Notes: generated from the letters alone by a model not told the origin. Numbered from the stretch's first letter, positions 1,408 to 17,064 are shown. The stretch: 64,000 bases of DNA from an uncultured Gammaproteobacteria bacterium (GCA_965231015.1 OZ246408.1:686595-750594), one strand, 5' to 3'. Numbers and translations: made by a program.

Positions 1408-3102
1408 ATGTCACTCAAAGAAAACAAATACAAAGAAATACTGGTTGATTACGATCTAATCTCGCAGGCAGAATACGACAAAGTCCTAAAAATATCTAAA
1501 GAAACTGAACGACCTTTGGAAGCAGTATTAGTTGATCAGGGTCATTTTACTGATCAACAGATTGGTAAACTAATTGCCAATGCTTACGAAGCAAAATTTG
1601 TTGACCTTAATAAAATTGAAATTGACCCAAAAGCCATTCAGGATATTCCTGAAATTTTTGCAAAAAAACAGAGCATTATTTCTTACGGTTGGAAAAACGG
1701 GGTTCGCCAAGTAGCCATGAATGATCCACACAACCTGGAACTGATTGATTTTGTGGAAAAGAAAATTGGTGAACAGGTTGATGTCTCTTACACCACTCCC
1801 GGTTTGATCGAACAGGCCTTTGCTGCTTATAGCACTAACGTGGCTGTAAAAATTCTTGATATCAGCAAAGAGTTTGCCAAGCTGGTTGGTAAAAGCAAGC
1901 CCTCACAAAAGGAAAGAGACCGTATGGAAGAGCTGATTGTCACCGTAACAGATCAATTGCTCAACTACGGCTATGACAACAAGGCTTCTGATATTCATAT
2001 TGAACCGCGAGAGAGTGATTTTTTGGTGCGTTACCGCGTAGACGGTATTTTGCACGATGAATTTGTGATGCCAAAGAAAATGCATAACGCCATTGTTTCG
2101 CGTATTAAGATTCTCTCAAACCTGCGCACGGATGAACACCTGGCTGCCCAGGATGGCAAATTCCGTTTCCGAGTTGGCAGTGATAAGATTGATGTACGTG
2201 TTTCGATCTTGCCGGTTGTCAACGGAGAAAAAGTGGTCATGCGACTGCTTGCTGAAAAAGGCCAACAGTACACATTAGAAAACATTGGTCTGGCTAAACT
2301 TGACATGGAGCGCGTGCGTGAGGCCGCTGAAAAACCGTACGGCATGATTCTTGTGACCGGTCCTACCGGAAGTGGTAAAACCACCACTCTCTACACCGTG
2401 CTCAAACTATTAAACACCCGCGACGTTAATATTTCCACTATTGAGGATCCGGTGGAGTATGACATTGCCGGGGTAAATCAAATTCAAGTTAATGAACGCA
2501 CCAATCTAACCTTTGCCGCTGGTCTGCGTTCTATTGTTCGTCAAGACCCGGACATTATCATGGTAGGTGAGATTCGTGATGAAGAAACCGCAGGGATCGC
2601 TGTTAACTCGGCCATGACCGGACACTTGGTTTTATCCACTCTTCACACCAACGATGCTCCAACCGCTCTGCCACGTTTGCTGGACATGGACGTGGAGCCG
2701 TTTTTGATTGCCTCATCAGTCAACGTGATTGTAGCTCAACGATTGGTTAGAAAAATTTGTCCCAACTGTATTACCAGCACATCTTTGAACGTAGAAAAAC
2801 TAAAAAAAGCTGTTTCTCCGGAAGTTTACAAACAATACTTTGGCTCAAAGAAAAATGCCCGCGTGTTCAAGGGCAAAGGCTGTGATCTGTGTCACCATTC
2901 CGGCTACACCGGACGAACCGGTATTTTTGAAGTTCTTACTATTTCCAGCCACATCCGAAAACTAATCATGGAACGAGCTAATGCGGAAGAAATCAAAGAA
3001 GCGGCCATGAAAGAAGGAATGACCACCATGATTGAAGACGGAATTAAAAAAATGATTGAAGGTGTGACCACTCTAGATGAAGTATTACGCGTTGTAAAGT
3101 AA
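1408..3102 (+). CDS. pilB: Type IV pilus assembly ATPase PilB/GspE family
   Basis: 564 aa. Walker A GPTGSGKTTT, Asp-box, His-box and a tetracysteine CPNC...CDLC motif typical of GspE/PilB. Confidence 0.9.
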   Translation: MSLKENKYKEILVDYDLISQAEYDKVLKISKETERPLEAVLVDQGHFTDQQIGKLIANAYEAKFVDLNKIEIDPKAIQDIPEIFAKKQSIISYGWKNGVRQVAMNDPHNLELIDFVEKKIGEQVDVSYTTPGLIEQAFAAYSTNVAVKILDISKEFAKLVGKSKPSQKERDRMEELIVTVTDQLLNYGYDNKASDIHIEPRESDFLVRYRVDGILHDEFVMPKKMHNAIVSRIKILSNLRTDEHLAAQDGKFRFRVGSDKIDVRVSILPVVNGEKVVMRLLAEKGQQYTLENIGLAKLDMERVREAAEKPYGMILVTGPTGSGKTTTLYTVLKLLNTRDVNISTIEDPVEYDIAGVNQIQVNERTNLTFAAGLRSIVRQDPDIIMVGEIRDEETAGIAVNSAMTGHLVLSTLHTNDAPTALPRLLDMDVEPFLIASSVNVIVAQRLVRKICPNCITSTSLNVEKLKKAVSPEVYKQYFGSKKNARVFKGKGCDLCHHSGYTGRTGIFEVLTISSHIRKLIMERANAEEIKEAAMKEGMTTMIEDGIKKMIEGVTTLDEVLRVVK

Positions 3103-3212: not shown

Positions 3213-4403
3213 ATGCGTTACGTTTACACTGTCGCTGATAAAAAAGGCGAAAAAAAGCACGGTGTCATAGAGGCGGACGACAGGAAAAAAGCTATTGCAG
3301 AATTGAAACGGTCGGGCAAGACCATAATTTTCTTATCAGCCGAAACCAAGAAAATAATTCTCTATCTCCCCTACGTTTCCAGCTTTGAAAAAATGGCCAT
3401 GACTAAACACCTGGCTATCATGCTTAAAGCCGGTTTGACCCTGGACGCCACCATGAAAACCCTGATCCTTCAGTTCACAGGGAAACTGCGGAGTGTTTTA
3501 GACGATGTTTACGACAGTATTGAAGCTGGTTCAGGATTAGCCGAAGCTATGGCCCAACACCCGCGTGTGTTCAACGACTACTTTGTAAACATGGTAAAAG
3601 CCGGTGAATCAAGTGGTAATCTACCGGAGAATCTGGAACGTTTAGCCGACCGGTTAAGCAAAGACCATGAACTGAAACAAAAAGTGGTCAGTGCTATGTT
3701 TTATCCGACCATGGTTTTTGCTCTCACCCTGGCGCTTGCTTTATCCATTTCTTTATTTGTACTTCCTCGCCTGACCGGACTTTTTAAAGCTTTTGACTTT
3801 GAGCTTCCGTTAACCACTAAAATCATGCTGGTCTTTTCCAACTTTATGGCCAACCATGGTGTTTTAGCGGCCATGATTGTTATTATCGGCATCCCAACCT
3901 TCATTTTTGTTTTAAGACTAAAGCCGGTCCGACCGTTTTCCCATGCCCTGTATCTTAAGCTGCCTCTGATCAACAAACTGATCATGGATATTAATTTGGC
4001 TCGTTTTTCCATTATTTTGTCCTCCCTTTTGGAAAGCGGTTTACCAATTGATAAGGCGGTTAAAATCTGTCGGGACGTTATTGGAAACTACCGCTACAAA
4101 GCGGCTATTCAACGTTTAAACGAAGGAATTGTCACCGGAAAACCGGCCTCTGATGTTTTGTCTGAATTTCAAAGTATTTTCCCACCGTTTGTGGTGCAAA
4201 TGATTGCTTCCGGTGAAGAATCAGGGAAACTCGAAGACATGTTGTCATACCTTGGAGAATTCTATGAAAAAGAACTGGATAATAAACTTAAAAACCTTTC
4301 CACCATCGTTGAACCGGGTCTATTAATAATCATTGGTTTAATGGTGGCCTTTACGGCCATTGCCATTATCACTCCGGTTTACAACTTTATTGGAGAAATT
4401 TAA
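3213..4403 (+). CDS. pilC: Type IV pilus platform protein PilC/GspF family
   Basis: 396 aa with two GspF-type repeats and three TM segments. It lies immediately downstream of pilB. Confidence 0.85.
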   Translation: MRYVYTVADKKGEKKHGVIEADDRKKAIAELKRSGKTIIFLSAETKKIILYLPYVSSFEKMAMTKHLAIMLKAGLTLDATMKTLILQFTGKLRSVLDDVYDSIEAGSGLAEAMAQHPRVFNDYFVNMVKAGESSGNLPENLERLADRLSKDHELKQKVVSAMFYPTMVFALTLALALSISLFVLPRLTGLFKAFDFELPLTTKIMLVFSNFMANHGVLAAMIVIIGIPTFIFVLRLKPVRPFSHALYLKLPLINKLIMDINLARFSIILSSLLESGLPIDKAVKICRDVIGNYRYKAAIQRLNEGIVTGKPASDVLSEFQSIFPPFVVQMIASGEESGKLEDMLSYLGEFYEKELDNKLKNLSTIVEPGLLIIIGLMVAFTAIAIITPVYNFIGEI

Positions 4404-4405
4404 TT

Positions 4406-4888
4406 ATGTTCTTTTCGCTTGGCAAAACCAAGCCCGCACGTGACGGTTTTACCCTTTCCGAAACACTTTTAGTGGTCAGTATCATTGTCTTACTGGCTAT
4501 TTTAGCGATTCCGGTATATACGAACTTTTACCACAAGTATCAATTGGACACCGCTTCTCATGACACTCTACAGTTCTTGCGGGTCGCTCAAGTTAATGCC
4601 ATGGCCAGCCGTGGTCATGACGAATATGGGCTCCGGATTGTCTCCGGAGACGGCGGTTCAATTGAAATCTTTAAAGGGCCGAGTTATGCGGGTCGAGATA
4701 CTTCATTTGAAGGAGAGATTATCAACTTTCCCTCGAATGTAAATATCTCTGAAACCGTGGTTGGATCAGACATTGTCTTTACTCGTGTAGAAGGATCAAC
4801 CCCAGACACCGGAACTATCACACTTTATAACCAAGCTGACACTAAAATAATTTCTATTTATGAAACCGGGCTGGTGGAACTTGACTAA
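4406..4888 (+). CDS. Prepilin-type (pseudopilin/minor pilin) protein
   Basis: N-terminus MFFSLGKTKPARDG|FTLSETLLVVSIIVLLAIL is a class III signal with Glu at +5 after the cleavage Gly. Confidence 0.8.
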   Translation: MFFSLGKTKPARDGFTLSETLLVVSIIVLLAILAIPVYTNFYHKYQLDTASHDTLQFLRVAQVNAMASRGHDEYGLRIVSGDGGSIEIFKGPSYAGRDTSFEGEIINFPSNVNISETVVGSDIVFTRVEGSTPDTGTITLYNQADTKIISIYETGLVELD

Positions 4889-7800
4889 ATACCGACACGG
4901 ATCGGTTATGATTGAGGCCCTGATGGCGGTCGCGATTTTTGGTATTGGGGCGTCCAGTATTGTGTATTTGATTCTCGGCTCCCTGGAAACCACTCGTTCG
5001 GGTTCAGACTACACCGCAGCCCAAGAATACTTAAACGAGGGCTGGGAAGCCACCCGTTCAATTGGTACCAACAACTATAATGCCCTTGAGATTAGCCCGA
5101 CGACCTTTGGAGTTGATGACACTTCCGGGGAATGGGTTTTTTCCGGCACCAGCAATACGGATGGATATTTTACTCGCACTATCGATATCAATCCGGTTTA
5201 CCGAGATGCTTTGGGTGATATTGCTCCAACCGGAACCATTGACATTAATCTGCGCGAAATCATTGTTAATGTCTCCTGGTACGAAACTCCAACCAAACAA
5301 CGAAGTGTTTTTTCAACTTTTTATTTTTCTAACTGGGACTCTGACTCCTGGTTTGAAGACACGGAAGCTGACTTTTCTGACGGTACGTTTACGAGCACTG
5401 AAACAACTCTGCATGATGACGGAGAGGTTGCCCTAGAAGCCATCGGAGGCGGATCAGATGATTGGGGCTGCGTAGAGCAAACCTTGACTTATGATATCTC
5501 AGGAACAGCTGACTATAATGACCTTGATGTTGTTGATAATACTTTGTATATGGTTCGTGAATCAGACACCGGTCCGGAACTCGTAATTTATGACGTAAGC
5601 ACCCCGGATAGCCCCAGCCTGCTCGGCTCCATGGACTTAACCACTACGGGTAACGCTATTAAGGTAGATGATGGTTACGCCTACATTGCCTCGATTCATA
5701 ACAGTTATGAATTAGGAGTGATTGATGTATCTGATCCGGCGGCACCTTTTTTGGCTGGTGGGTATGATGCGGCCGGAACCGCTAATGGTAGTGATGTGTA
5801 TGTAGATGGTGATCGAGTATATCTTGCTCGAGAAAGCAGTGCCGCAGATGAATTCTTTATTTTGAACGTTGCCACTCCATCCACACCGGTTTTTGTTGGT
5901 TCTTATGATGTTGGAGACACGGTTGAGGGACTGGTTGTTGATACCACCAATGATGTGGCATTTTTGGCCACCCGTGGTGATGCTCGTGAACTCACTGCGG
6001 TCAATATCTCTACCGAAACCTCACCCGTGCTTCACAGTGAGTATGATATACCGGGTATTGATAACGCTACTGACGTAGCTCTCGATGACACACTTAACTA
6101 CGCCATTGTCACACGCACCACGGATACTGGTTCAGAAATTTTTGTAGTTAACGTTAGTGATCCTACCAACATTACTGCTGAGACTGATTTAGAAGCGGAC
6201 CGAGACGCCATCGGGGTTTATGTTGATGGAGATTATGCTTTGGTGGTTACCAATGACCCGGGATACGGCTTAATCACCATTGATTTTTCCAATCCTGCCA
6301 CAGCCACCACTTTAAGCACAATAGACATTGACGGTGACGCCAACGCGGTGATTGCCGCGGACAATCACCGTATATACGTAGCCACCGGTAATGATTCAGG
6401 TGAACTAATGGTATACAAAGCCGGCGGAGGGTGGGCTTGCCCAAGTTTTGTGGGGAATTATGACGACACCGCAGGAACTGACGCGGTACGACTTGATCTT
6501 GTGGGTGATACTCTTTACTTGACCAAAGAAAGTTCAGGTAATGACGAATTGGTTATTTTGGACGTCACTGACCGCTCCTCCCCTTCCCTGCTTGGCTCCA
6601 TTGATATTGGAGACACAATTTTTGATATAGATGTCGAAGGAAACTACGCTTACTTGGCCACGAATGGGGACGAGCTGGTCATTGTTGACGTTTCTAATCC
6701 AAGCTCGTTGTCTATTGCAGGAACCTTTGACGCCACCGGTGGAGCCGATGGTTACGCGGTAGTGGTCAACGCTGACCGAGCCTATTTGGGACGCAACAGC
6801 AGTAGCAGTGATGAATTATATATCATAGACGTTTCCAACCCGGCCGCACCTGTGGAACTGGATTCTTTTGATGCCGGTGATGACGTCAATGGCCTTGCTT
6901 ACTCCGGTGGGTATGTTTATCTAGCTTCCGACCATAATACTTACACTTTTGAAAACTATGACGTCTCTTTCGATACGTGGAGCTGGGTAGACTATATCCA
7001 ATATCCAACCAACCTGCGCGACGTTTATGTCAATGGTAATTATGCCTATGTGGTGGGCGAAGATAATCCGGGAAATGAATTCTTCATTATTGATATCACA
7101 GACCCAACCAATTATTCTGAGGTTGGTTCAGCAGAAATAAACGAGGACAGTTACGAAGTTTGGAGCGACGGGAACTATGCTTTCTTAAGCGCGCATATAA
7201 CTGACCAGGAAATCATGATTTATGACGTCTCCAATCCAACCGGCCCGTCTTTTGTTCAAAGTTATGACATAAGTGGCGGAACCTATGACGTTTTTGGAAT
7301 TGAAGGAGACGGAAGTTATTTATATGCTTCCGGTGAATCTGATGATCAGGAACTCATCATATTAGAGCCATACGTCAGCTCTGGCCTGGCGGACACATAT
7401 ATCCATGATAGCTTGGCAGAATTTAATGGCAGTTATTCTGATACACAGTGGAACACGGACCACCTTGAACTTGATGCCACCGGCATCACAAACGGAACTG
7501 GTACCTACACCTCCCCAATCATAGACTCTGGTCAAGCTGACTCGGCCTGGGGTGACTTGGCCTGGACCGAAGAGCTTAATAATTCACCGGATCTGCGTAT
7601 GGAAGCTGGTAGTACCACAGCTACGAGTAGCTACAGCACGGTTACCCTACAAAACACCTACGAAAATCCCGTTGTGGTTCCCTTCTATTTCGAAAGTAAT
7701 AACGCTGACCCGGTTTCGGTTCGTTTGGACAATATTACCAGTACCAGTTTCGATCTGAAGCTTCAAGAACCGGACGGGACTACTCCTTCTTCAGACACGG

Positions 7801-9881
7801 TTCACTATTTCGTAATTGAATCCGGCGCTTTTGAATTACCTGACGGTACCCTGATTGAAGCCGGAACTTATGACAGCAGTACGGTAGCTTCTAAAGCCAA
7901 CGGATGGAACGGTGATAATATCAACTTCACCCAAGCCTTCACTTCTGCTCCAGTAGTTATGCATGCGGTTCAAACCGAAAACGACAGCACCTGGATTTCC
8001 AGTTTCATTTCCGCTCAAGGTAGCCAAAACAACCCGCCAACCTCCACCGGTTTTCAGATTGCCATGAACGGAGCCGAGGCAGTTAATAGTCATGACCCGG
8101 AAACTCTGGGTTGGGTGGCTTTTGAGACCGCCACCGGTTTGATTGATGGAACAGCCTACGAATTTGTTAACAACGGAGATGGCACTACCGGACACGCTAA
8201 CGGTTGTACTGTTAAAAATTTCTCCAACTCCTACTCTTCCCCACCTCTGGTTATTGCTGACCAGCAAGAAATGGATGGTGGTGATGGAGGGTGGCTGGTT
8301 GGCTGTTCAGGCCCAACTTCTTCGAATTACGGCGAACATGTTGAAGAAGACACGGTTGGTGACACTGACCGAGGTCATACCGGTGAAACCACGGCCTACA
8401 TTGCTTTTGAAAGCGCGTTCGATTTTGAACAATCAACTTCGAGTAATCCTTTGCGCCTTGAGGTTGGCTCAACGTCTGTAACCTCGGCTTTCAACACGGT
8501 CAACCTACAACTTTCCTACACTGATCTGGTAGTTATTCCTTTCCATATGGAAAGCTCTAATACCATTCCCGTTTCTACTCGCATCACTAATATCACCTCC
8601 AACAGTTTTGACATTAAACTCGACAACCCATCGGGCAGTACTCCTTCCAGTGAAACAGTTTATTACATTGTAGCCGAGACCGGTATCTACACTTTGCCCG
8701 GAGGAAGTATTCTTGAAGTATTTAAAGCTGACACCAGCCAGGTTAGTTCGTCCGGAGCCGGCTGGAGCGGCACCAACTACAACTACGTCAGCAGCTTTGC
8801 TTCAACTCCGGTTGTTTTACACCATGTTCAAACCAACAATGACCCGGCCTGGATTTACTCTTATGTTTCCGAACAAGGCACGGCCACCAACCCTCCGACA
8901 GCTACTGGTTTCCAATACTCTCTTAACGGTGCTGAGGTCACCAATTCCCACGGATCTGAAACCATTGGTTTTATTATTCTGGAACAGGGTACGGGCAATA
9001 TTACCGGAATCGATTTTGAAAACACGGTTCACAGCAATAACACCCGTGGTCACGATGATGGTTGTTACACCCAAACTTATTCCGGTTTTTTCTTCCCTGC
9101 TCCGCTCGTAATTGCCAAACAGCAGGGTATGGCCGGACCTAACGGCGGATGGTTAGTGGGTTGCTCGGGTCCAAGTTCTTTCAACTACGGAGCTCATGTT
9201 GAAGAAGATCAGGTTGGAGACGGGGAAAGAAACCACACCGACGAATACACGGCTAGCTCTATTTTTGAAGCCGCTTTCGATTACGAAGAGGCTGAAAATG
9301 ATCTTGTCTTCCAGGTTCGTTCTTGTGATGACGCCGGTTGTGTCGGTGAATCATTTATGGGTCCGGACGGCACCAGTGGTACCTACTACACCACTCCTGA
9401 CGGCGAGGCGTTAAATGTTGCTGAAAACCAATATTTCCAATATCAGGTCACCTTTACATCCGGTGATGGCGCCACTACTCCGGAACTGTATGACGTCACT
9501 TTTGACTTTGGTCCTGGCGGTGGAGGCGGCGGCGGATCCTACGAAACCGCCGGCACTTACCGTTCGAACGCTTATGACGCAGGTGGAACCGCTAATTGGA
9601 ACACCCTTGAATGGACCGAAGAGGTCACGGGTTGCGGTACTTGTGACATTAAGGTGCAGATTCGCACCGCAACCACACCCGGTGGCCTATCCGGAGAACT
9701 TTGGCAGGGTCCAGAAGGTAAAGATGGTGATGAAACCGACTTCTTCACTGGCCCGTCCGGCGACCTGATCCATCCGGATCATAACGGAGACCAGTGGATC
9801 CAGTATCTAGTAACCCTGACCGGAGATGGCACTACTACCCCGTATTTTGAAGATATCTTTATCACTTACACCAACTACTAA
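4860..9881 (+). CDS. Giant pilin-headed surface protein (1673 aa) with LVIVD beta-propeller repeats and an internal tandem 286-aa duplication
   Basis: The N-terminus ...RHG|SVMIEALMAVAIFGIG is prepilin-like, with Glu at +5. About 14 LVIVD-type repeats (ELVIYDVSTP, EFFILNVATP, ELVIVDVSNP, ELYIIDVSNP, EIMIYDVSNP ...) span roughly nt 5500-7380. Two tandem 286-aa units (7593-8450 and 8451-9308) are about 50% identical. A G7 run lies at ~9511-9540. The first 29 nt overlap the upstream gene. Confidence 0.75.
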   Translation: MKPGWWNLTKYRHGSVMIEALMAVAIFGIGASSIVYLILGSLETTRSGSDYTAAQEYLNEGWEATRSIGTNNYNALEISPTTFGVDDTSGEWVFSGTSNTDGYFTRTIDINPVYRDALGDIAPTGTIDINLREIIVNVSWYETPTKQRSVFSTFYFSNWDSDSWFEDTEADFSDGTFTSTETTLHDDGEVALEAIGGGSDDWGCVEQTLTYDISGTADYNDLDVVDNTLYMVRESDTGPELVIYDVSTPDSPSLLGSMDLTTTGNAIKVDDGYAYIASIHNSYELGVIDVSDPAAPFLAGGYDAAGTANGSDVYVDGDRVYLARESSAADEFFILNVATPSTPVFVGSYDVGDTVEGLVVDTTNDVAFLATRGDARELTAVNISTETSPVLHSEYDIPGIDNATDVALDDTLNYAIVTRTTDTGSEIFVVNVSDPTNITAETDLEADRDAIGVYVDGDYALVVTNDPGYGLITIDFSNPATATTLSTIDIDGDANAVIAADNHRIYVATGNDSGELMVYKAGGGWACPSFVGNYDDTAGTDAVRLDLVGDTLYLTKESSGNDELVILDVTDRSSPSLLGSIDIGDTIFDIDVEGNYAYLATNGDELVIVDVSNPSSLSIAGTFDATGGADGYAVVVNADRAYLGRNSSSSDELYIIDVSNPAAPVELDSFDAGDDVNGLAYSGGYVYLASDHNTYTFENYDVSFDTWSWVDYIQYPTNLRDVYVNGNYAYVVGEDNPGNEFFIIDITDPTNYSEVGSAEINEDSYEVWSDGNYAFLSAHITDQEIMIYDVSNPTGPSFVQSYDISGGTYDVFGIEGDGSYLYASGESDDQELIILEPYVSSGLADTYIHDSLAEFNGSYSDTQWNTDHLELDATGITNGTGTYTSPIIDSGQADSAWGDLAWTEELNNSPDLRMEAGSTTATSSYSTVTLQNTYENPVVVPFYFESNNADPVSVRLDNITSTSFDLKLQEPDGTTPSSDTVHYFVIESGAFELPDGTLIEAGTYDSSTVASKANGWNGDNINFTQAFTSAPVVMHAVQTENDSTWISSFISAQGSQNNPPTSTGFQIAMNGAEAVNSHDPETLGWVAFETATGLIDGTAYEFVNNGDGTTGHANGCTVKNFSNSYSSPPLVIADQQEMDGGDGGWLVGCSGPTSSNYGEHVEEDTVGDTDRGHTGETTAYIAFESAFDFEQSTSSNPLRLEVGSTSVTSAFNTVNLQLSYTDLVVIPFHMESSNTIPVSTRITNITSNSFDIKLDNPSGSTPSSETVYYIVAETGIYTLPGGSILEVFKADTSQVSSSGAGWSGTNYNYVSSFASTPVVLHHVQTNNDPAWIYSYVSEQGTATNPPTATGFQYSLNGAEVTNSHGSETIGFIILEQGTGNITGIDFENTVHSNNTRGHDDGCYTQTYSGFFFPAPLVIAKQQGMAGPNGGWLVGCSGPSSFNYGAHVEEDQVGDGERNHTDEYTASSIFEAAFDYEEAENDLVFQVRSCDDAGCVGESFMGPDGTSGTYYTTPDGEALNVAENQYFQYQVTFTSGDGATTPELYDVTFDFGPGGGGGGGSYETAGTYRSNAYDAGGTANWNTLEWTEEVTGCGTCDIKVQIRTATTPGGLSGELWQGPEGKDGDETDFFTGPSGDLIHPDHNGDQWIQYLVTLTGDGTTTPYFEDIFITYTNY

Positions 9882-9883
9882 AT

Positions 9884-10414
9884 ATGAAACTACGTCGCTC
9901 ACAACACGGCTATACCCTGGTGGAACTTCTGTTGACCATTGCAGTGCTGGCTTTGATTGGAGCGCTTGGTATTAACCTTTTCTTAGCTGTTTTAAATAAC
10001 AGAGCCAAGGTGATCGCCCAAATAGAGGTGCAACAAAACGCACACTTAGCCATGCAGCGCATAGTTTATGAAATCCGTCGCGCCTATGACACTGAGGCCA
10101 CTTCTGACTTTGATACTAATTTGGCTACCAATCCCGGCACTACGCTTGATCTGGACATGCCGGATGCTGGACGCGACCCAACCACCTTTGAAGTGAATTC
10201 CGGAGTCATCCAAATCACACAAGGAGCCGGCTCTACTGTTAACCTGACCTCAAACGACGTTGAGGTGACTGATTTAACAATTGAAGACCGAAGCACCGGG
10301 AACGGACGAAGCAACAACTTACGCGTCAATTTAACCATCAAATCTGTACTGGATGGACCAAACGCGCCTGATGCGGAAACTTTTGTCACCACAGTTGAAC
10401 TTAGGTATCCATAA
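9884..10414 (+). CDS. Prepilin-type pseudopilin
   Basis: MKLRRSQHG|YTLVELLLTIAVLALIGAL, with Glu at +5. Confidence 0.8.
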   Translation: MKLRRSQHGYTLVELLLTIAVLALIGALGINLFLAVLNNRAKVIAQIEVQQNAHLAMQRIVYEIRRAYDTEATSDFDTNLATNPGTTLDLDMPDAGRDPTTFEVNSGVIQITQGAGSTVNLTSNDVEVTDLTIEDRSTGNGRSNNLRVNLTIKSVLDGPNAPDAETFVTTVELRYP

Positions 10415-10416
10415 AT

Positions 10417-10836
10417 ATGCGGCAACTTTTTCAACAACTTAAAGACCAAAAAGGCTTTGTGACCATTACCACAGCTGTTATAATATTCTTTACAACCCTT
10501 ATTTTGGCCCTCTCCATTCAGTTTGCCGGCATTGGAGTGTTACAAACCGGATACTTAAACAATCTTTCTGCCCAAGCCTACTCTTTGGCTGATGGATGCT
10601 TAGAAGAAGCCATGCTCCGCTTAACCACGGATGACACTTATACCGGTGGTACGGTCACAGTCGGTGATGATTATTGCACCATTACCGTCACTGGAGCAGG
10701 TGCAACAAGAAACATTACCTCAATGTCCACGGTCAATGACATTGTCAATCGAGAAATTGAAGCCGATGTCACCATCACTGACATGGGCGGCTGGAACGAC
10801 GTTGTTATGACCGATTGGATGGAAACAATAAATTAA
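10417..10836 (+). CDS. Pilin-like minor subunit (non-canonical, no Glu+5)
   Basis: MRQLFQQLKDQKG|FVTITTAVIIFFTTLILALS has a hydrophobic pilin-like helix after Gly, but Thr at +5. This resembles PilX/GspK-type minor pilins. Confidence 0.55.
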   Translation: MRQLFQQLKDQKGFVTITTAVIIFFTTLILALSIQFAGIGVLQTGYLNNLSAQAYSLADGCLEEAMLRLTTDDTYTGGTVTVGDDYCTITVTGAGATRNITSMSTVNDIVNREIEADVTITDMGGWNDVVMTDWMETIN

Positions 10837-10839
10837 CCT

Positions 10840-13005
10840 ATGGGAAGAATCAACCAAATCGGACTTAGTATTTCTGATGCCTCGATCGAAATGATCCAGG
10901 TGACAAAGTCCGGCAAAAATAAAGCTAAAATTATCAGCACAGCCACCGGTCCGATACCGGCCGGTATTATTAATCGTGGTGTAATAAAGGATCATGAAAA
11001 GTTGATTCAGGTATTAAACAAGGTCTACGAGTCGGCCAAACCCAAACCTTTTAACACTAAGGATGTATCGGTATCTTTGCCTGACAATGTGGCTTTTACG
11101 CATGTTTTTAAGTTCCCGGGTGCCTTAAACGAAAACGATGTTGCATCAACTTTAAAATTTGAAGCCGAAGACATAATCCCTTACCCCATTGATGACCTGT
11201 ACGTCACCTTTAAAATAATCAAACAGAACGAAGAAAAAACCGATGTTTTGTTTGTAGGTGCCCCTAAAGATATTATTGACGGTTACGTTACCACCCTTGA
11301 AGAGGCGGGCTACAAAATAAAACAATTGGAAATTGAAGCCAACGCTTTGATTCGCGTTCTTATTCCGGGTATTGCTAAGGGTAAAGCAGTCATGATTATG
11401 GATCTTGGTGGCACCAACACTCGCTTCACCTTGGCTGATGAAGAAGGTCTGAACGGGTCTTTCAGCCTACCAGTTGGTGGCAATGCTATCACAGAAGCAA
11501 TTGCCAAAGAGCTCAGTATCTCCGGACGTGAAGCAGAAGCGTTAAAGAAAAAGAAGAGCAAAGGAAAGAAGGCAAAAGTAATTGAAAAAGCAATTGATGA
11601 ATACCTGGAGAAAATAGTAGAAAAGGCTGAAAAAGTGATTGAGTGGTATGGTCGAGAGGACGAAGGTCAATTAGATAAAATGGTCCTGACCGGCGGTGGA
11701 AGTGGTCTGCCCGATTTAACTGAAAAGCTGTCTCAAAAACTAACCGCGCGTAAGCTTTCCATGGATATTGTCATGGGCAGCCCTTGGCAGAACATTGAAA
11801 CCAAGACCGCTCCCAAGCCCGCCTCGGTAAGTGGCCGGATATTTGCACCGGCTCTTGGGGCTGTTCCGATTAAATCAAGCAAGCTGGTTCCGGAAATCGA
11901 CTTAATAGACGTCCTCGGCAAAAGAAGAAATCCATTTAAAAATGTTTCTAACGTCCAAAAAACTGTTGATTTAATGGCTAAGCAAGATCCAGGGGCAGAT
12001 AAAGAACCTTTATCTTTACGTCGATTATCCGTTCTCATTAATCAATACAACACTGTCTTTGCCATCATTGCCGCAGCAATAATTGTGGGGGCAATTGGTT
12101 TTATTATCTTCTGGCTCTTTTTTGCTGATCGCGATTTTCAACAATTAACCACACCAACAACAACTACGGAACCGACCATCACTGAAGAAGTTGGTGAAGA
12201 GCAGGATGAGAGTGAAACAGAAGCCACAACTGGTCAGTTAATTCTACAAATGGATATAAACGCCAGAACTAGTGATGTAGTAGCGGCCAACTATCAAGAA
12301 GTGCCTAGTTACGGAACCACTTTCAGCTACCAACTAGAAGCCACAGAAACAGTGGACAGTGTTGCCTCGGGACGAGTTACTTTGTTTAACAACACTTCTG
12401 CAGACCAACCTTTAATAACCACCACGCGTCTACTTTCTGAAGACGGGGTATTATTTCGTTTAACCAATGCGGTCACAGTTCCGGCTGAAGGTCAGATTGA
12501 GGCAGAGGTTTATGCTGACCAAGCAGGGGCTTCAGGCAATATTGCTTCAACCAGTTTTACGATCCCCGGCCTACCTGACTCCCTACAAGCAGACATTTAT
12601 GCCACAAGCTCCGAGGCCATGAGTGGCGGCACCGAAGAAGTAGCTATCTTTTCAGAAGAAGTATATGAACAGGCTCTAGCTGAACTAAAAAGACAATTAC
12701 TTAGTACGCCGAGCAACCTGTTTGGTGCTGAATCAACTGAAAACACCTACCTGGTTGATTTGGCAGAATTGGAGCCGGTGGAGTTAGAAACATCGGTTGA
12801 AATCGGGCAAAGTACGGATGTGGTTGAACTCATAGGAACGGTTAGTATTTCTGCTCTGTCTTTTAGTGAAACCAATCTAAAAGAAGTTATCAAAACGGTT
12901 TTAGAAAAACCGGACGCCCAGGTTGAAATAAACGGTATCTCGGTTGAAAGTGTTGCAGATGACCTGCAAACAGCTGAACTGGATGTGGAGTATTCGACGG
13001 ATTAG
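10840..13005 (+). CDS. pilM: PilM-like actin-fold ATPase fused to a TM segment and a ~290-aa extracytoplasmic acidic domain (PilM-PilN/O-like fusion)
   Basis: The N-terminal ~350 aa has a PilM/FtsA-like fold (MDLGGTNTRFTLADEEG, VLTGGGSGLPDL). A TM helix VFAIIAAAIIVGAIGFIIFWLFF lies around aa 405-428. The C-terminus is T/E-rich. Confidence 0.7.
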   Translation: MGRINQIGLSISDASIEMIQVTKSGKNKAKIISTATGPIPAGIINRGVIKDHEKLIQVLNKVYESAKPKPFNTKDVSVSLPDNVAFTHVFKFPGALNENDVASTLKFEAEDIIPYPIDDLYVTFKIIKQNEEKTDVLFVGAPKDIIDGYVTTLEEAGYKIKQLEIEANALIRVLIPGIAKGKAVMIMDLGGTNTRFTLADEEGLNGSFSLPVGGNAITEAIAKELSISGREAEALKKKKSKGKKAKVIEKAIDEYLEKIVEKAEKVIEWYGREDEGQLDKMVLTGGGSGLPDLTEKLSQKLTARKLSMDIVMGSPWQNIETKTAPKPASVSGRIFAPALGAVPIKSSKLVPEIDLIDVLGKRRNPFKNVSNVQKTVDLMAKQDPGADKEPLSLRRLSVLINQYNTVFAIIAAAIIVGAIGFIIFWLFFADRDFQQLTTPTTTTEPTITEEVGEEQDESETEATTGQLILQMDINARTSDVVAANYQEVPSYGTTFSYQLEATETVDSVASGRVTLFNNTSADQPLITTTRLLSEDGVLFRLTNAVTVPAEGQIEAEVYADQAGASGNIASTSFTIPGLPDSLQADIYATSSEAMSGGTEEVAIFSEEVYEQALAELKRQLLSTPSNLFGAESTENTYLVDLAELEPVELETSVEIGQSTDVVELIGTVSISALSFSETNLKEVIKTVLEKPDAQVEINGISVESVADDLQTAELDVEYSTD

Positions 13006-13073: not shown

Positions 13074-13556
13074 ATGATAAATTTCAGGCGAAACAAAGAG
13101 GGTTTTACTTTGGTCGAGCTCCTCATTGTGATCGCAATCATTGTGATCCTGTTCGCTGTCATCTTGGTGGCCGTTGATCCACCAAAGCGACTTGGTCAAG
13201 CTCGAGATGCTGTGCGCCGTCAGGACGTTCGTGATATCCTCGAAGCGGTCCAACAATACATGGTGGACAACGATGGGGCTTACCCAACCGGACTGGACGC
13301 TGTTTCAGCCTCCTTCCAAGTACTTGGTACTGATGCCGCTGGATGTGACAGCACTTGTACAGCTGAAACTGCCCTGGCTGCTTGTTTAGACATGTCCGGT
13401 GACTTAGTTGAGGAATATCTGGCTGATATTCCATTTGATCCATCAAGCGGAGATGCTGGAAACACAGATTATGCTATCAATCGTACGGCTGGTGACCGCA
13501 TTGAAATAGTTGCTTGCGACCCGGAAATTGCAGCCACCATTTCAGTTAAACGATAA
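13074..13556 (+). CDS. Type IV major pilin (paralog 1)
   Basis: MINFRRNKEG|FTLVELLIVIAIIVILFAVILVAV is a canonical prepilin. A Cys-containing variable C-terminal region follows. An extended -10 promoter and a downstream terminator are present. Confidence 0.9.
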   Translation: MINFRRNKEGFTLVELLIVIAIIVILFAVILVAVDPPKRLGQARDAVRRQDVRDILEAVQQYMVDNDGAYPTGLDAVSASFQVLGTDAAGCDSTCTAETALAACLDMSGDLVEEYLADIPFDPSSGDAGNTDYAINRTAGDRIEIVACDPEIAATISVKR

Positions 13557-13671: not shown

Positions 13672-14151
13672 ATGATAAATTTCAGGCGAAACAAAGAGGG
13701 TTTTACTTTGGTTGAGCTCCTCATTGTGATCGCAATCATTGTGATCCTGTTCGCTGTCATCTTGGTGGCCGTTGATCCACCAAAGCGACTTGGTCAAGCT
13801 CGAGATGCTGTGCGCCGTCAGGACGTTCGTGATATCCTCGAAGCGGTCCAACAATACATGGTGGACAACGATGGGGCTTACCCAACCGGACTGGACGATG
13901 TTCAAACCTCATATCAGGTACTCGGAACCGGAGTTGGTTGTGACACCACTTGTGGTGCTGCTACCACCCTACCTGCTTGTTTAGACATGTCCGGTGACTT
14001 GGTTGAGGAATACCTGGCTGATATTCCATTTGACCCATCAACCGGAAGTGCGGCTAACACTGATTATGCCATCGAGCTAACTGCTGGCGACAGAATCGAA
14101 GTTTTAGCTTGTGACCCAGAAATTGCAGCCACAATTTCGGCCAAACGATAA
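13672..14151 (+). CDS. Type IV major pilin (paralog 2, tandem duplicate)
   Basis: The first 227 nt match paralog 1 with 1 mismatch. The middle and C-terminal regions diverge. Confidence 0.9.
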   Translation: MINFRRNKEGFTLVELLIVIAIIVILFAVILVAVDPPKRLGQARDAVRRQDVRDILEAVQQYMVDNDGAYPTGLDDVQTSYQVLGTGVGCDTTCGAATTLPACLDMSGDLVEEYLADIPFDPSTGSAANTDYAIELTAGDRIEVLACDPEIAATISAKR

Positions 14152-14241: not shown

Positions 14242-17064
14242 ATGTCTAAATTCATCTTCTTTCTATTAATTGTCTTTCTGATAGCCCCTTTGGCTCTTAC
14301 AAAGCCTGTCCCGGCTGCTGCGCGGGGTTCGCTTATCAAGGGCAGTTTACCGGCCGTGTATTACTTGGCTTCAGACGGAAAACGCTACGTCTTCCCTAAC
14401 GAAAAAATCTACTTTTCCTGGTATGAAAATTTTTCTGGAGTCAGCGAGATTAATGACAGCACCCTGGCTTCTTATGACCTTGGCGGTAATGTTTCTTACC
14501 GACCCGGCACACATTTAGTAAAGATTCAAAGCAATTCCACGGTTTATGCGGTTGAACCCGGCGGCATGCTTCGCGCCATTGATTCAGAAGAGACAGCCAG
14601 CACCCTTTACGGCTCTGACTGGGCCAGTCGAGTACACGACCTGCCAGACAGCTTTTTTTCTTATTACACGGTGACTAACGAGCTGGACGAAACAGTCTAT
14701 CCTGAAGGTAGTTTATTAAAAGATTCTGTCTCAAGTGAATACTACATCATTTTAAATGGACAAAAACGCCTCTTAAGCGATGACGGGATCACAGCCAACG
14801 GTATTCAGACCAAATACGCTATCACTACTGATACCAGCTCTTACACATCAGGAAGCACCGTTACTACAGAGATTACTGAACTGGCAGACACTGCCCAAAT
14901 TGACCAGGGACTCATCAATCAGGACACCATCATTGAGGTCAGCACGGTTCAAAATGAAACCACCGTATTACAGGACGCCAACAACGAAGTCCTGGCCACT
15001 TACATTTTCTCCCTTACCAAAGAAGTCGAAATCAAATCTCTGGTTTTACGCATTCGCGCTCACTCGAGCACAGATAGCGATGACGATCCGGGTGGATTAA
15101 TTTATGAAGAAGGAGGAGGCAACCTAGAAAATATTCGTTTTGTTACCTCAGACGGAACACAATTATTGTCTTCGCGTAGCTTAAGTTCAGATACCAACAA
15201 AGACGGCCAGCAAGATATTAGCTTTACCGGAACGGCTACTTTACCGGTGGGCCAACACACGGTCAATGTTCTGGTGGACGTTATCGAGGAAGTTCCGGAT
15301 GGTGAAAGCTATTCCACCACTTTATACCTATCTGACACCTCTTTTGAGATATCAGGCAACGAAACAACGGATTACACTCCGGAGAGCCTATCCAGCGGTA
15401 CAGTAACCGTTAAAACGCAAAATTTGGCCGTTTCCGTAGCTTCCAACCTGGAAAACCAGTATTTCCTAAAAGGTGGAAATTCAGACTTTGTAGACTTAAT
15501 CTCTTTCAAATTGGAAAACTCGCGCAAAGAATCCGTGACCGTCTCCGAATTCACCCTAACCGGCTATATTGACGAACACGAAGGTGATACTGACTTTGTG
15601 GCCGGAGCTGATTCGGATAACTCCGGATCCAGCTTTACCTATGTTGATGATGTAATCGATAAGGTTGAACTGATTAATGAGGAAACCGAAGAATTAATCG
15701 GAACCCAGTCCACAGTACAATCAAACGGCGCGGTTTCTTTTGGGAACATTGACCTTACCCTGGAAGCCGAAACCAGCGTTAACCTACTGACTCGGGTTTA
15801 TATTAATTCTGATGCACCTTTCGGCCTACAGTCAGACCGCATTTCTTTTGATATTGATGACGTAGAAGATGATATGACTGTTAAAGTGACCGGTACTAGC
15901 CAAGAAGTTGATATTGAAGCTACCAGCCTAAACAATGGATCCAGTCCCGGCTCATTTTTGACCGTTTCTGAATCAGGAACTCTGACCATAGAGGGGTCCG
16001 GCAGTGCTCCGGCACGTCTTATTATGGGAACCGAGGAAAATTCTATCTATTCTTTTACCTTTACCGCTTCTGAAGAGGAGGCCATGATCATTGATACCTT
16101 GACGGTTCGCTTGCTTGACCCAAACGCCCAAAGAAGTGTGTCTAAGGTTGAACTAAGGCACCTTGGGGATGATGGTTATGAATACGTTGATGGAAACTTT
16201 GTTAACAGCAACGCTACTTTTGAAAACCTGGACATTGAAGTTCCCCAGGACGATGAATTGACTGTCAGTGTTTTAGTAGACATTGGCGATGACAACTCAT
16301 CGGCTCAATCCGGAGACAAAATTGGGGTGGCTTTTGAAACCAATACTTTCAAAGCCCATGGTGCAACATCCGGAATCCGGTTTGATAAAGATGATCTAGG
16401 TGAACACCTGATTGATTCAACCAGCCTCGGCTCAGAAACCTTTGTTCGGCGTAACGAACCAAATGTCAGTCTAGCCGTGAACCAACCAGACGCCTCACAA
16501 GGTCGTTCTGACCAAACAGAAATTTTCACCTTTACCCTTGGCTCAGAAGGAGAGGGTAATCCGGAATTAGAGTTAATTACCTTCAAAATTACCACCTCTG
16601 ACGTTGGTTACGATTTAAACGAAGAAGAGGCCGACAATGACCTCTTGGAAGGGCTAGCTGATATCAACGGTGATAGTTCTGATGACGACGAAACGGTTGA
16701 GATAATTGATGAAGAAAGCGGTGACACAATTTGTGAGGGATCGAGTGGGCACATTGATTTCTCAATTTATGATTATTCCGAGAGTGAAATTGATACTACA
16801 CCGGCCGGGCTTGATACAGATCGAGAAGATTATGGTTTGATAGTTTGTGAGATGAATAATCCGCTTCGTATATATAACGAGGGTCGGGATTACACATTTG
16901 GCTTAAACACCACTGAGCTGGCACCCGGAGCGCAAAATGTCCGTGTTACGATCCTTGGCGGTGATGACTTCCGATGGAACGATGGAACCAATACCAGCCT
17001 AACAGAAAATGGAGACGAGATCAGTGGCCTGAACTTAAACTCCCAATACGCCTCGTTCCAGTAA
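14242..17064 (+). CDS. Large secreted acidic protein (940 aa), function unknown
   Basis: Signal peptide MSKFIFFLLIVFLIAPLALTKPVPAAA. Highly D/E/T/S-rich. It lies directly downstream of the pilin genes. Confidence 0.6.
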   Translation: MSKFIFFLLIVFLIAPLALTKPVPAAARGSLIKGSLPAVYYLASDGKRYVFPNEKIYFSWYENFSGVSEINDSTLASYDLGGNVSYRPGTHLVKIQSNSTVYAVEPGGMLRAIDSEETASTLYGSDWASRVHDLPDSFFSYYTVTNELDETVYPEGSLLKDSVSSEYYIILNGQKRLLSDDGITANGIQTKYAITTDTSSYTSGSTVTTEITELADTAQIDQGLINQDTIIEVSTVQNETTVLQDANNEVLATYIFSLTKEVEIKSLVLRIRAHSSTDSDDDPGGLIYEEGGGNLENIRFVTSDGTQLLSSRSLSSDTNKDGQQDISFTGTATLPVGQHTVNVLVDVIEEVPDGESYSTTLYLSDTSFEISGNETTDYTPESLSSGTVTVKTQNLAVSVASNLENQYFLKGGNSDFVDLISFKLENSRKESVTVSEFTLTGYIDEHEGDTDFVAGADSDNSGSSFTYVDDVIDKVELINEETEELIGTQSTVQSNGAVSFGNIDLTLEAETSVNLLTRVYINSDAPFGLQSDRISFDIDDVEDDMTVKVTGTSQEVDIEATSLNNGSSPGSFLTVSESGTLTIEGSGSAPARLIMGTEENSIYSFTFTASEEEAMIIDTLTVRLLDPNAQRSVSKVELRHLGDDGYEYVDGNFVNSNATFENLDIEVPQDDELTVSVLVDIGDDNSSAQSGDKIGVAFETNTFKAHGATSGIRFDKDDLGEHLIDSTSLGSETFVRRNEPNVSLAVNQPDASQGRSDQTEIFTFTLGSEGEGNPELELITFKITTSDVGYDLNEEEADNDLLEGLADINGDSSDDDETVEIIDEESGDTICEGSSGHIDFSIYDYSESEIDTTPAGLDTDREDYGLIVCEMNNPLRIYNEGRDYTFGLNTTELAPGAQNVRVTILGGDDFRWNDGTNTSLTENGDEISGLNLNSQYASFQ

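Follow-up and report, generated by a model that had tools for sequence, protein, structure and literature searches.

Modular pilins, in which a pilin module carries additional cargo, form an established class of type IV pilus components. A survey by Raynaud et al. (2021) lists over 1,200 of these proteins in 264 architectures, and modular pilins are predicted to be exposed at the pilus tip (PMC8179133). The most extreme case in that survey is an 860-residue pilin from Ca. Falkowbacteria with 12 repeats of the IPR013211 type (PMC8179133), and IPR013211 is the LVIVD repeat (PMC10210494). LVIVD repeats have been described solely as cell-surface repeats, without known enzymatic activity (PMC2447325, PMC10210494).

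Several pilus components with binding functions have been described. In Nanosynbacter lyticus TM7x, the CPR minor pilin PilX2 bears a seven-bladed propeller at its C-terminus and is a proposed adhesin; deletion of PilX2 cuts host binding as much as loss of the major pilin or of the ATPase (PMC12206443). The minor pilin CofB has an H-type lectin domain, which does not bind GalNAc; instead, the trimer interface accommodates a peptide of CofJ (PMC6048534). MshQ and PilY1 are tip adhesins placed on I-J-K complexes, but they are not pilins themselves and attach to PilX/MshP through a C-terminal β-strand of their own (PMC12918778).

The locus described here encodes an extreme member of the modular-pilin class. 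It lies in a window of 64,000 nucleotides (the whole stretch of DNA that was analysed), the source of which is an ultrasmall bacterium of the CPR/Patescibacteria type. All features given below are on the plus strand.

The pilin head and its gene cluster

A single uninterrupted ORF at 4860..9881, stop codon included, encodes a 1673-aa modular minor pilin. Relatives of the same architecture are 90% (P0001) and 47–51% (P0002 and P0003) identical to it. Upstream are the genes for the extension ATPase PilB (1408-3102; Pfam T2SSE, E=1e-130) and the platform protein PilC (3213-4403; Pfam T2SSF, E=2e-56); downstream are those for a PilM-fusion protein (10840-13005; Pfam PilM_2, E=2e-37) and for two major-pilin paralogues (13074-13556 and 13672-14151), which are 87.5% identical and score 33 bits each against N_methyl. 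The window ORFs that were scanned yielded neither a prepilin peptidase (Peptidase_A24) nor PilT. A 940-aa secreted protein in which no Pfam domain is found is encoded immediately after the major pilins, at 14242-17064.

The minor-pilin cluster lies between pilBC on one side and pilM and the major pilins on the other. The first gene (4406..4888) encodes a 160-aa protein with the leader motif G/FTLSE (the slash marks the cleavage site). It passes TIGR02532 (17.3 bits, cut-off 16.3) and is GspH/FimU-like on the basis of weak HMM matches, which include N_methyl (17.5 bits, cut-off 21.2), ComGD, XpsH and GspH, and it is conserved in the four related loci L001–L004. The third gene (9884..10414; 176 aa, G/YTLVE), also conserved in position, matches N_methyl at 27.4 bits and, weakly, ComGF and GspJ. 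The fourth (10417..10836; 139 aa, G/FVTIT) encodes a pilin-like protein, a candidate GspK/PilX analogue, with a weak match to TadF as its sole family match. Glu+5 is absent from this protein and from its orthologues in L001, L003 and L004; GspK likewise lacks Glu+5. The same order of leaders, with the giant protein second, recurs in L001, L003 and L004, and it is strongly supported that the giant gene holds second place, the PilV/GspI slot, in a row of four minor-pilin genes that are in turn GspH-, I-, J- and K-like.

Translation from the ATG at 4860 creates an overlap of 29 nt with the upstream pilin gene, and this overlap is kept in L001 and L002. The first 14 residues (4860..4901) form a class III (prepilin) leader ending in Gly-1, recognised from the head alignment and from an in-register profile match. 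The N-terminus reads MKPGWWNLTKYRHG/SVMIEALMAVAIFGIG, with the site context YRHG/S and the motif HG/SVMIE, and about 20 hydrophobic residues come after Glu+5 (SVMIE-ALMAVAIFGIGASSIVYLIL). Glu+5 is present in all 18 aligned heads and Gly-1 in 17, the remaining head having Ala. Residues +1 to +4 of the window protein, SVMI, are atypical, with Ser at +1 instead of Phe. The window protein has no match above cut-off to Pfam N_methyl (PF07963) or TIGR02532; P0004 is the sole orthologue above the N_methyl cut-off of 21.2 (26.8 bits), with P0012 (17.6 bits) and P0005 (15.9 bits) below it. When a profile of the head family is compared with solved pilins the leaders fall in register, geopilin giving E=0.002. 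The public gene call begins at Met22 and so hides the pilin signal. The initial annotation had proposed a 1673-aa ORF with a class III signal, and ORF, Gly-1 and Glu+5 can all be read directly. It had also allowed for a downstream start, which it put at 4907 (the ATG, Met17, is in fact at nt 4908); the upstream start holds, since both it and the Gly-1/Glu+5 motif are conserved in relatives.

The mature N-terminus and α1 helix occupy aa 15-71 (4902..5072), Glu+5 being aa 19, as judged from the alignment and an AF2 model. They are followed by a globular, GspI/PilV-like β-sheet (aa 72-165; 5073..5354) and by a neck or linker (aa 166-210; 5355..5489) with a DF..GT...DGE motif that is conserved in the head alignment; the neck has a pLDDT below 50 in the head-only model. 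In the AF2 model of the head, residues 12-71 form one continuous helix and residues 83-157 a sheet, at a pLDDT of about 90; the model takes the form of a pilin lollipop, in which a long α1 helix is packed on an antiparallel β-sheet. Its nearest neighbours in fold comparison are the tip pseudopilins GspK and GspI. The protein falls short of the PilV equivalog model TIGR02523, scoring 14.3 bits (E=0.042) where 52.2 are required, and the label GspI/PilV-like therefore refers to fold and position rather than to equivalog status. With its leader, Glu+5, α1 of about 57 residues and small β-sheet, the head is strongly supported as a type IV pilin module of the GspI-PilV type. Glu+5 matters for pilin assembly and is dispensable for membrane anchoring.

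The same head occurs on its own as a small pilin of about 165 aa, and with other cargo in proteins of up to 2116 aa. Matches to the head HMM include stand-alone small pilins and one-propeller versions, and 50 giant proteins out of the 294 fetched join the head to other cargo, in at least 15 cargo combinations. The earlier view that pilins with passengers of several hundred residues are rare does not hold, given these 50 proteins and the more than 1,200 modular pilins already catalogued (PMC8179133). The family probably evolves by adding and exchanging cargo while the head stays the same, in an order leading from the head alone to the addition of one propeller, then of two propellers and an X domain, then of one nested lectin unit and finally of two.

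Modules of the passenger

The passenger begins with two arrays of LVIVD repeats, each of seven blades and propeller-sized: array 1 at aa 211-519 (5490..6416), delimited by a blade HMM and by Pfam LVIVD and Beta_propel, and array 2 at aa 534-835 (6459..7364), delimited by the blade HMM. The repeats are about 42 aa long, and the blade HMM, which was self-trained, finds exactly 14 blades (7+7), in agreement with the roughly 14 repeats first reported. Their membership of the PF08309 family, also proposed at the outset, is borne out by scores far over the Pfam threshold (E=1.2e-39; 133.8 bits, cut-off 20.2), with seven stretches passing singly. The two arrays are 36% identical (z=27), and Pfam Beta_propel (PF09826) scores 32.7 bits against a cut-off of 22.4. 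From the repeat count and the Pfam matches, two β-propellers are predicted. To our knowledge, no ligand of LVIVD repeats has been described.

Downstream of the arrays are two tandem lectin units, nested within a domain named X1. Unit 1 comprises aa 912-1197 (7593..8450), with three H-type-lectin-like sub-domains at about 912-992, 993-1092 and 1093-1197; unit 2, its tandem copy, comprises aa 1198-1483 (8451..9308). The two align without gaps at 51.7% protein identity (z=52 against shuffles) and 57% nucleotide identity, in line with the two 286-aa units of about 50% identity in the initial annotation, which saw the duplication and missed the three H-type-lectin-like modules in each. P0002 and P0003 have one unit each, 58–59% identical to unit 1 and 52% to unit 2.

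Each unit is itself an internal triplication, the sub-domains of which are 19–23% identical to one another. Pfam H_lectin (PF09458) scores 39.6 bits for the whole protein against a cut-off of 24; singly, unit 1 scores 33.4 bits and unit 2 scores 21.5 bits, below the cut-off. The sequence match to the solved H-type lectin HPA is weak (E about 0.3). The model of the unit has the six-stranded β-sandwich fold of the HPA/discoidin type, and genuine sugar-binding lectins and the receptor-binding tips of phages rank among its best fold matches. The mean pLDDT of the C-terminal region model is 85, and that of unit 2 about 90. Classical H-type lectins are homotrimers with their ligand sites at the protomer interfaces, and by analogy the three sub-domains of each unit probably pack as a single-chain pseudo-trimer. 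The unit recurs across about 4,500 protein clusters, which span many phyla and many contexts; this three-in-one lectin cassette, widespread and apparently uncurated, appears to be the most novel aspect of the protein.

A GTYxS...W..L.WTEE motif is seen on both sides of the lectin units, as originally noted; it had been taken to bracket the duplication, and instead belongs to a single split domain. The second neck and the N-terminal strands of X1 (GTYTS...WGDLAWTEE) lie at aa 836-911 (7365..7592), and the C-terminal part of X1 at aa 1484-1551 (9309..9512; model pLDDT about 70–87). When joined, aa ~880-911 and 1484-1551 align with X2, an intact all-β C-terminal domain at aa 1560-1673 (9537..9878), with z=14.9; the motif recurs before and after the units because the two segments form one domain homologous to X2. 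The same nesting of N-part, unit and C-part is found in P0002, P0003, P0113, P0241 and P0103. As judged from these alignments, X1 is a jelly-roll-like domain interrupted by the insertion of two lectin units. X1 and X2 are separated by the run of seven glycines that had been remarked on earlier, located at aa 1553-1559 (9516..9536). It is encoded by mixed GGN codons (GGC GGT GGA GGC GGC GGC GGA) and hence by no homopolymer tract, and its model pLDDT of less than 50 is consistent with a flexible linker. This combination of a pilin head with LVIVD, H_lectin and X modules fits the definition of a modular pilin.

A proposed role at the pilus tip

It is reasonably probable that the protein is a modular type IV minor pilin that displays a multi-module adhesin at the pilus tip. 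The precursor would be inserted by the Sec pathway with its C-terminus outside, and the prepilin peptidase would cut after Gly14. The α1 helix would then join an initiation complex of the I-J-K type, which would prime the filament and stay at its tip, so that the acidic passenger of about 1500 residues would be displayed at the distal end. A monoderm-like CPR cell would present no outer-membrane secretin for this passenger to cross. The protein has an extracellular character, with 256 Asp and Glu against 44 Lys and Arg residues and with cysteines paired within modules. The modules offered to the outside would be the two seven-blade arrays, X1 with two lectin units in a loop, the Gly7 hinge and the second X domain. 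By analogy with TM7x PilX2, with PilB and PilC of S. sanguinis and with CofB, the protein probably forms the adhesive end of the pilus; most likely it makes multivalent contacts with glycans or other ligands at the surface of a host cell, a partner cell or a substrate. If so, it would be the adhesin or the specificity determinant of the pilus. Of the original proposal of a pilus-tip adhesin, the pilin head, the two arrays and the minor-pilin slot stand, while rarity and the bracketing motif fall away and the lectins had been overlooked.

Other explanations have been considered. The pilin-like N-terminus might be a mere membrane anchor for a surface adhesin, cleaved or uncleaved, that is never polymerised. 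The very large passenger of about 1500 aa, the failure of the window protein to reach the thresholds of the prepilin-motif HMMs and the Ser at +1 in place of Phe all suit this idea; it is nevertheless unlikely, as all 18 heads keep Glu+5, conservation extends over the entire globular head, which in other genomes is a normal minor pilin of small size, the position of the gene within the minor-pilin cluster is fixed, and the head fold resembles those of GspI and GspK. An assembly artefact, in which a chimeric contig or a fused gene call joined a small pilin to an unrelated surface protein, might be suspected from the small stand-alone heads found elsewhere and from the differing public start at Met22. 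It is effectively refuted, and its likelihood is negligible: there is one ORF, without interruption, on a contig of about 1.0 Mb, and the same head-to-tail architecture recurs in independent assemblies (L001 at 90%, L002 and L003 at 51%, L004 at 26%) and in dozens of further proteins.

Two further alternatives retain a pilus-borne protein and change what it does. It might be a tip docking platform for a secreted protein partner, as CofB is, or take part in pilus-dependent secretion, and not be a glycan lectin. CofB holds the CofJ peptide and not GalNAc (PMC6048534), and the 940-aa secreted protein encoded after the major pilins is a possible partner; but the occurrence of the unit in about 4,500 clusters is more readily expected of a general glycan-binding module than of a specific peptide dock, and sugar-binding lectins and phage receptor-binding tips are among the best fold matches, so that this possibility is quite doubtful. 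An enzyme displayed on the pilus, with catalytic LVIVD propellers and with the lectin and X domains as CBMs in the manner of a phage tailspike, would account for CBM-like appendages, which are typical of carbohydrate-active enzymes, and for a weak resemblance to CBM6 (E about 0.3). It is very unlikely, given that Pfam and NCBIfam searches of the window protein return no catalytic family and that LVIVD repeats are known from cell surfaces only and not as enzymes (PMC2447325, PMC10210494).

Comparison with described systems

Close architectural parallels to a tip-displayed modular pilin are PilB (vWA) and PilC (ConA-like lectin) of S. sanguinis, which also join a class III pilin module to bulky modules (PMC8179133, PMC9934059). 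For modular pilins of this type, a role as adhesins exposed at the tip has been predicted or shown, and a monoderm-type envelope is common to both systems. The window protein has no sequence homology with the cargo of PilB or PilC. It is about twice as long as the 860-residue Falkowbacteria pilin, and its passenger combines at least five module types or copies (two propellers, two lectin triplets and two X domains), with one module nested in another. PilX2 of TM7x, to which it is likened on the basis of the published description, differs in having one propeller and no lectin units; by slot, moreover, the window protein is PilV/GspI-like and is not PilX-named.

The tip complex of GspI/PilV and GspK/PilX (PDB 3CI0, 5BW0, 2RET) is matched by the position of the gene, second in an H-I-J-K-like order that ends with a gene for a protein without Glu+5; unlike the window protein, GspI is a protein of about 100–120 aa without a passenger. 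The propeller of PilY1, which is seven-bladed, and the MshQ-like lectin/LamG modules likewise belong to large multi-domain tip adhesins, whereas the window protein brings a pilin head of its own. It belongs to neither family: PF05567, for PilY1/PilC, gives no match at E<=1 in this pilin-headed protein, which may act alike, and DUF6701 (PF20419), for MshQ-like proteins, is absent. The MshQ-like protein P0016 (DUF6701, E=3e-110) contains the lectin unit twice, and shares only this unit with the window protein.

CofB and TcpB, of the type IVb pili of ETEC and V. cholerae, are minor pilins with an H-type-lectin fold at the tip that initiate assembly (PMC6048534, PMC9565799). No sequence similarity between CofB and the window protein is detectable; CofB is without propellers and is of the T4b type. 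It binds its ligand where three lectin domains meet, which are brought together in a homotrimer with one domain per chain, whereas in the window protein three lectin-like domains are fused in each chain and the triplet occurs twice. More widely, H-type lectins (Helix pomatia agglutinin, discoidin I/II and SLL-2) and the fibre tips of phages and R-pyocins provide examples of receptor- or glycan-binding tips; the classical H-type lectins are single-domain homotrimers, while the three domains of the window protein are covalently linked and have diverged.

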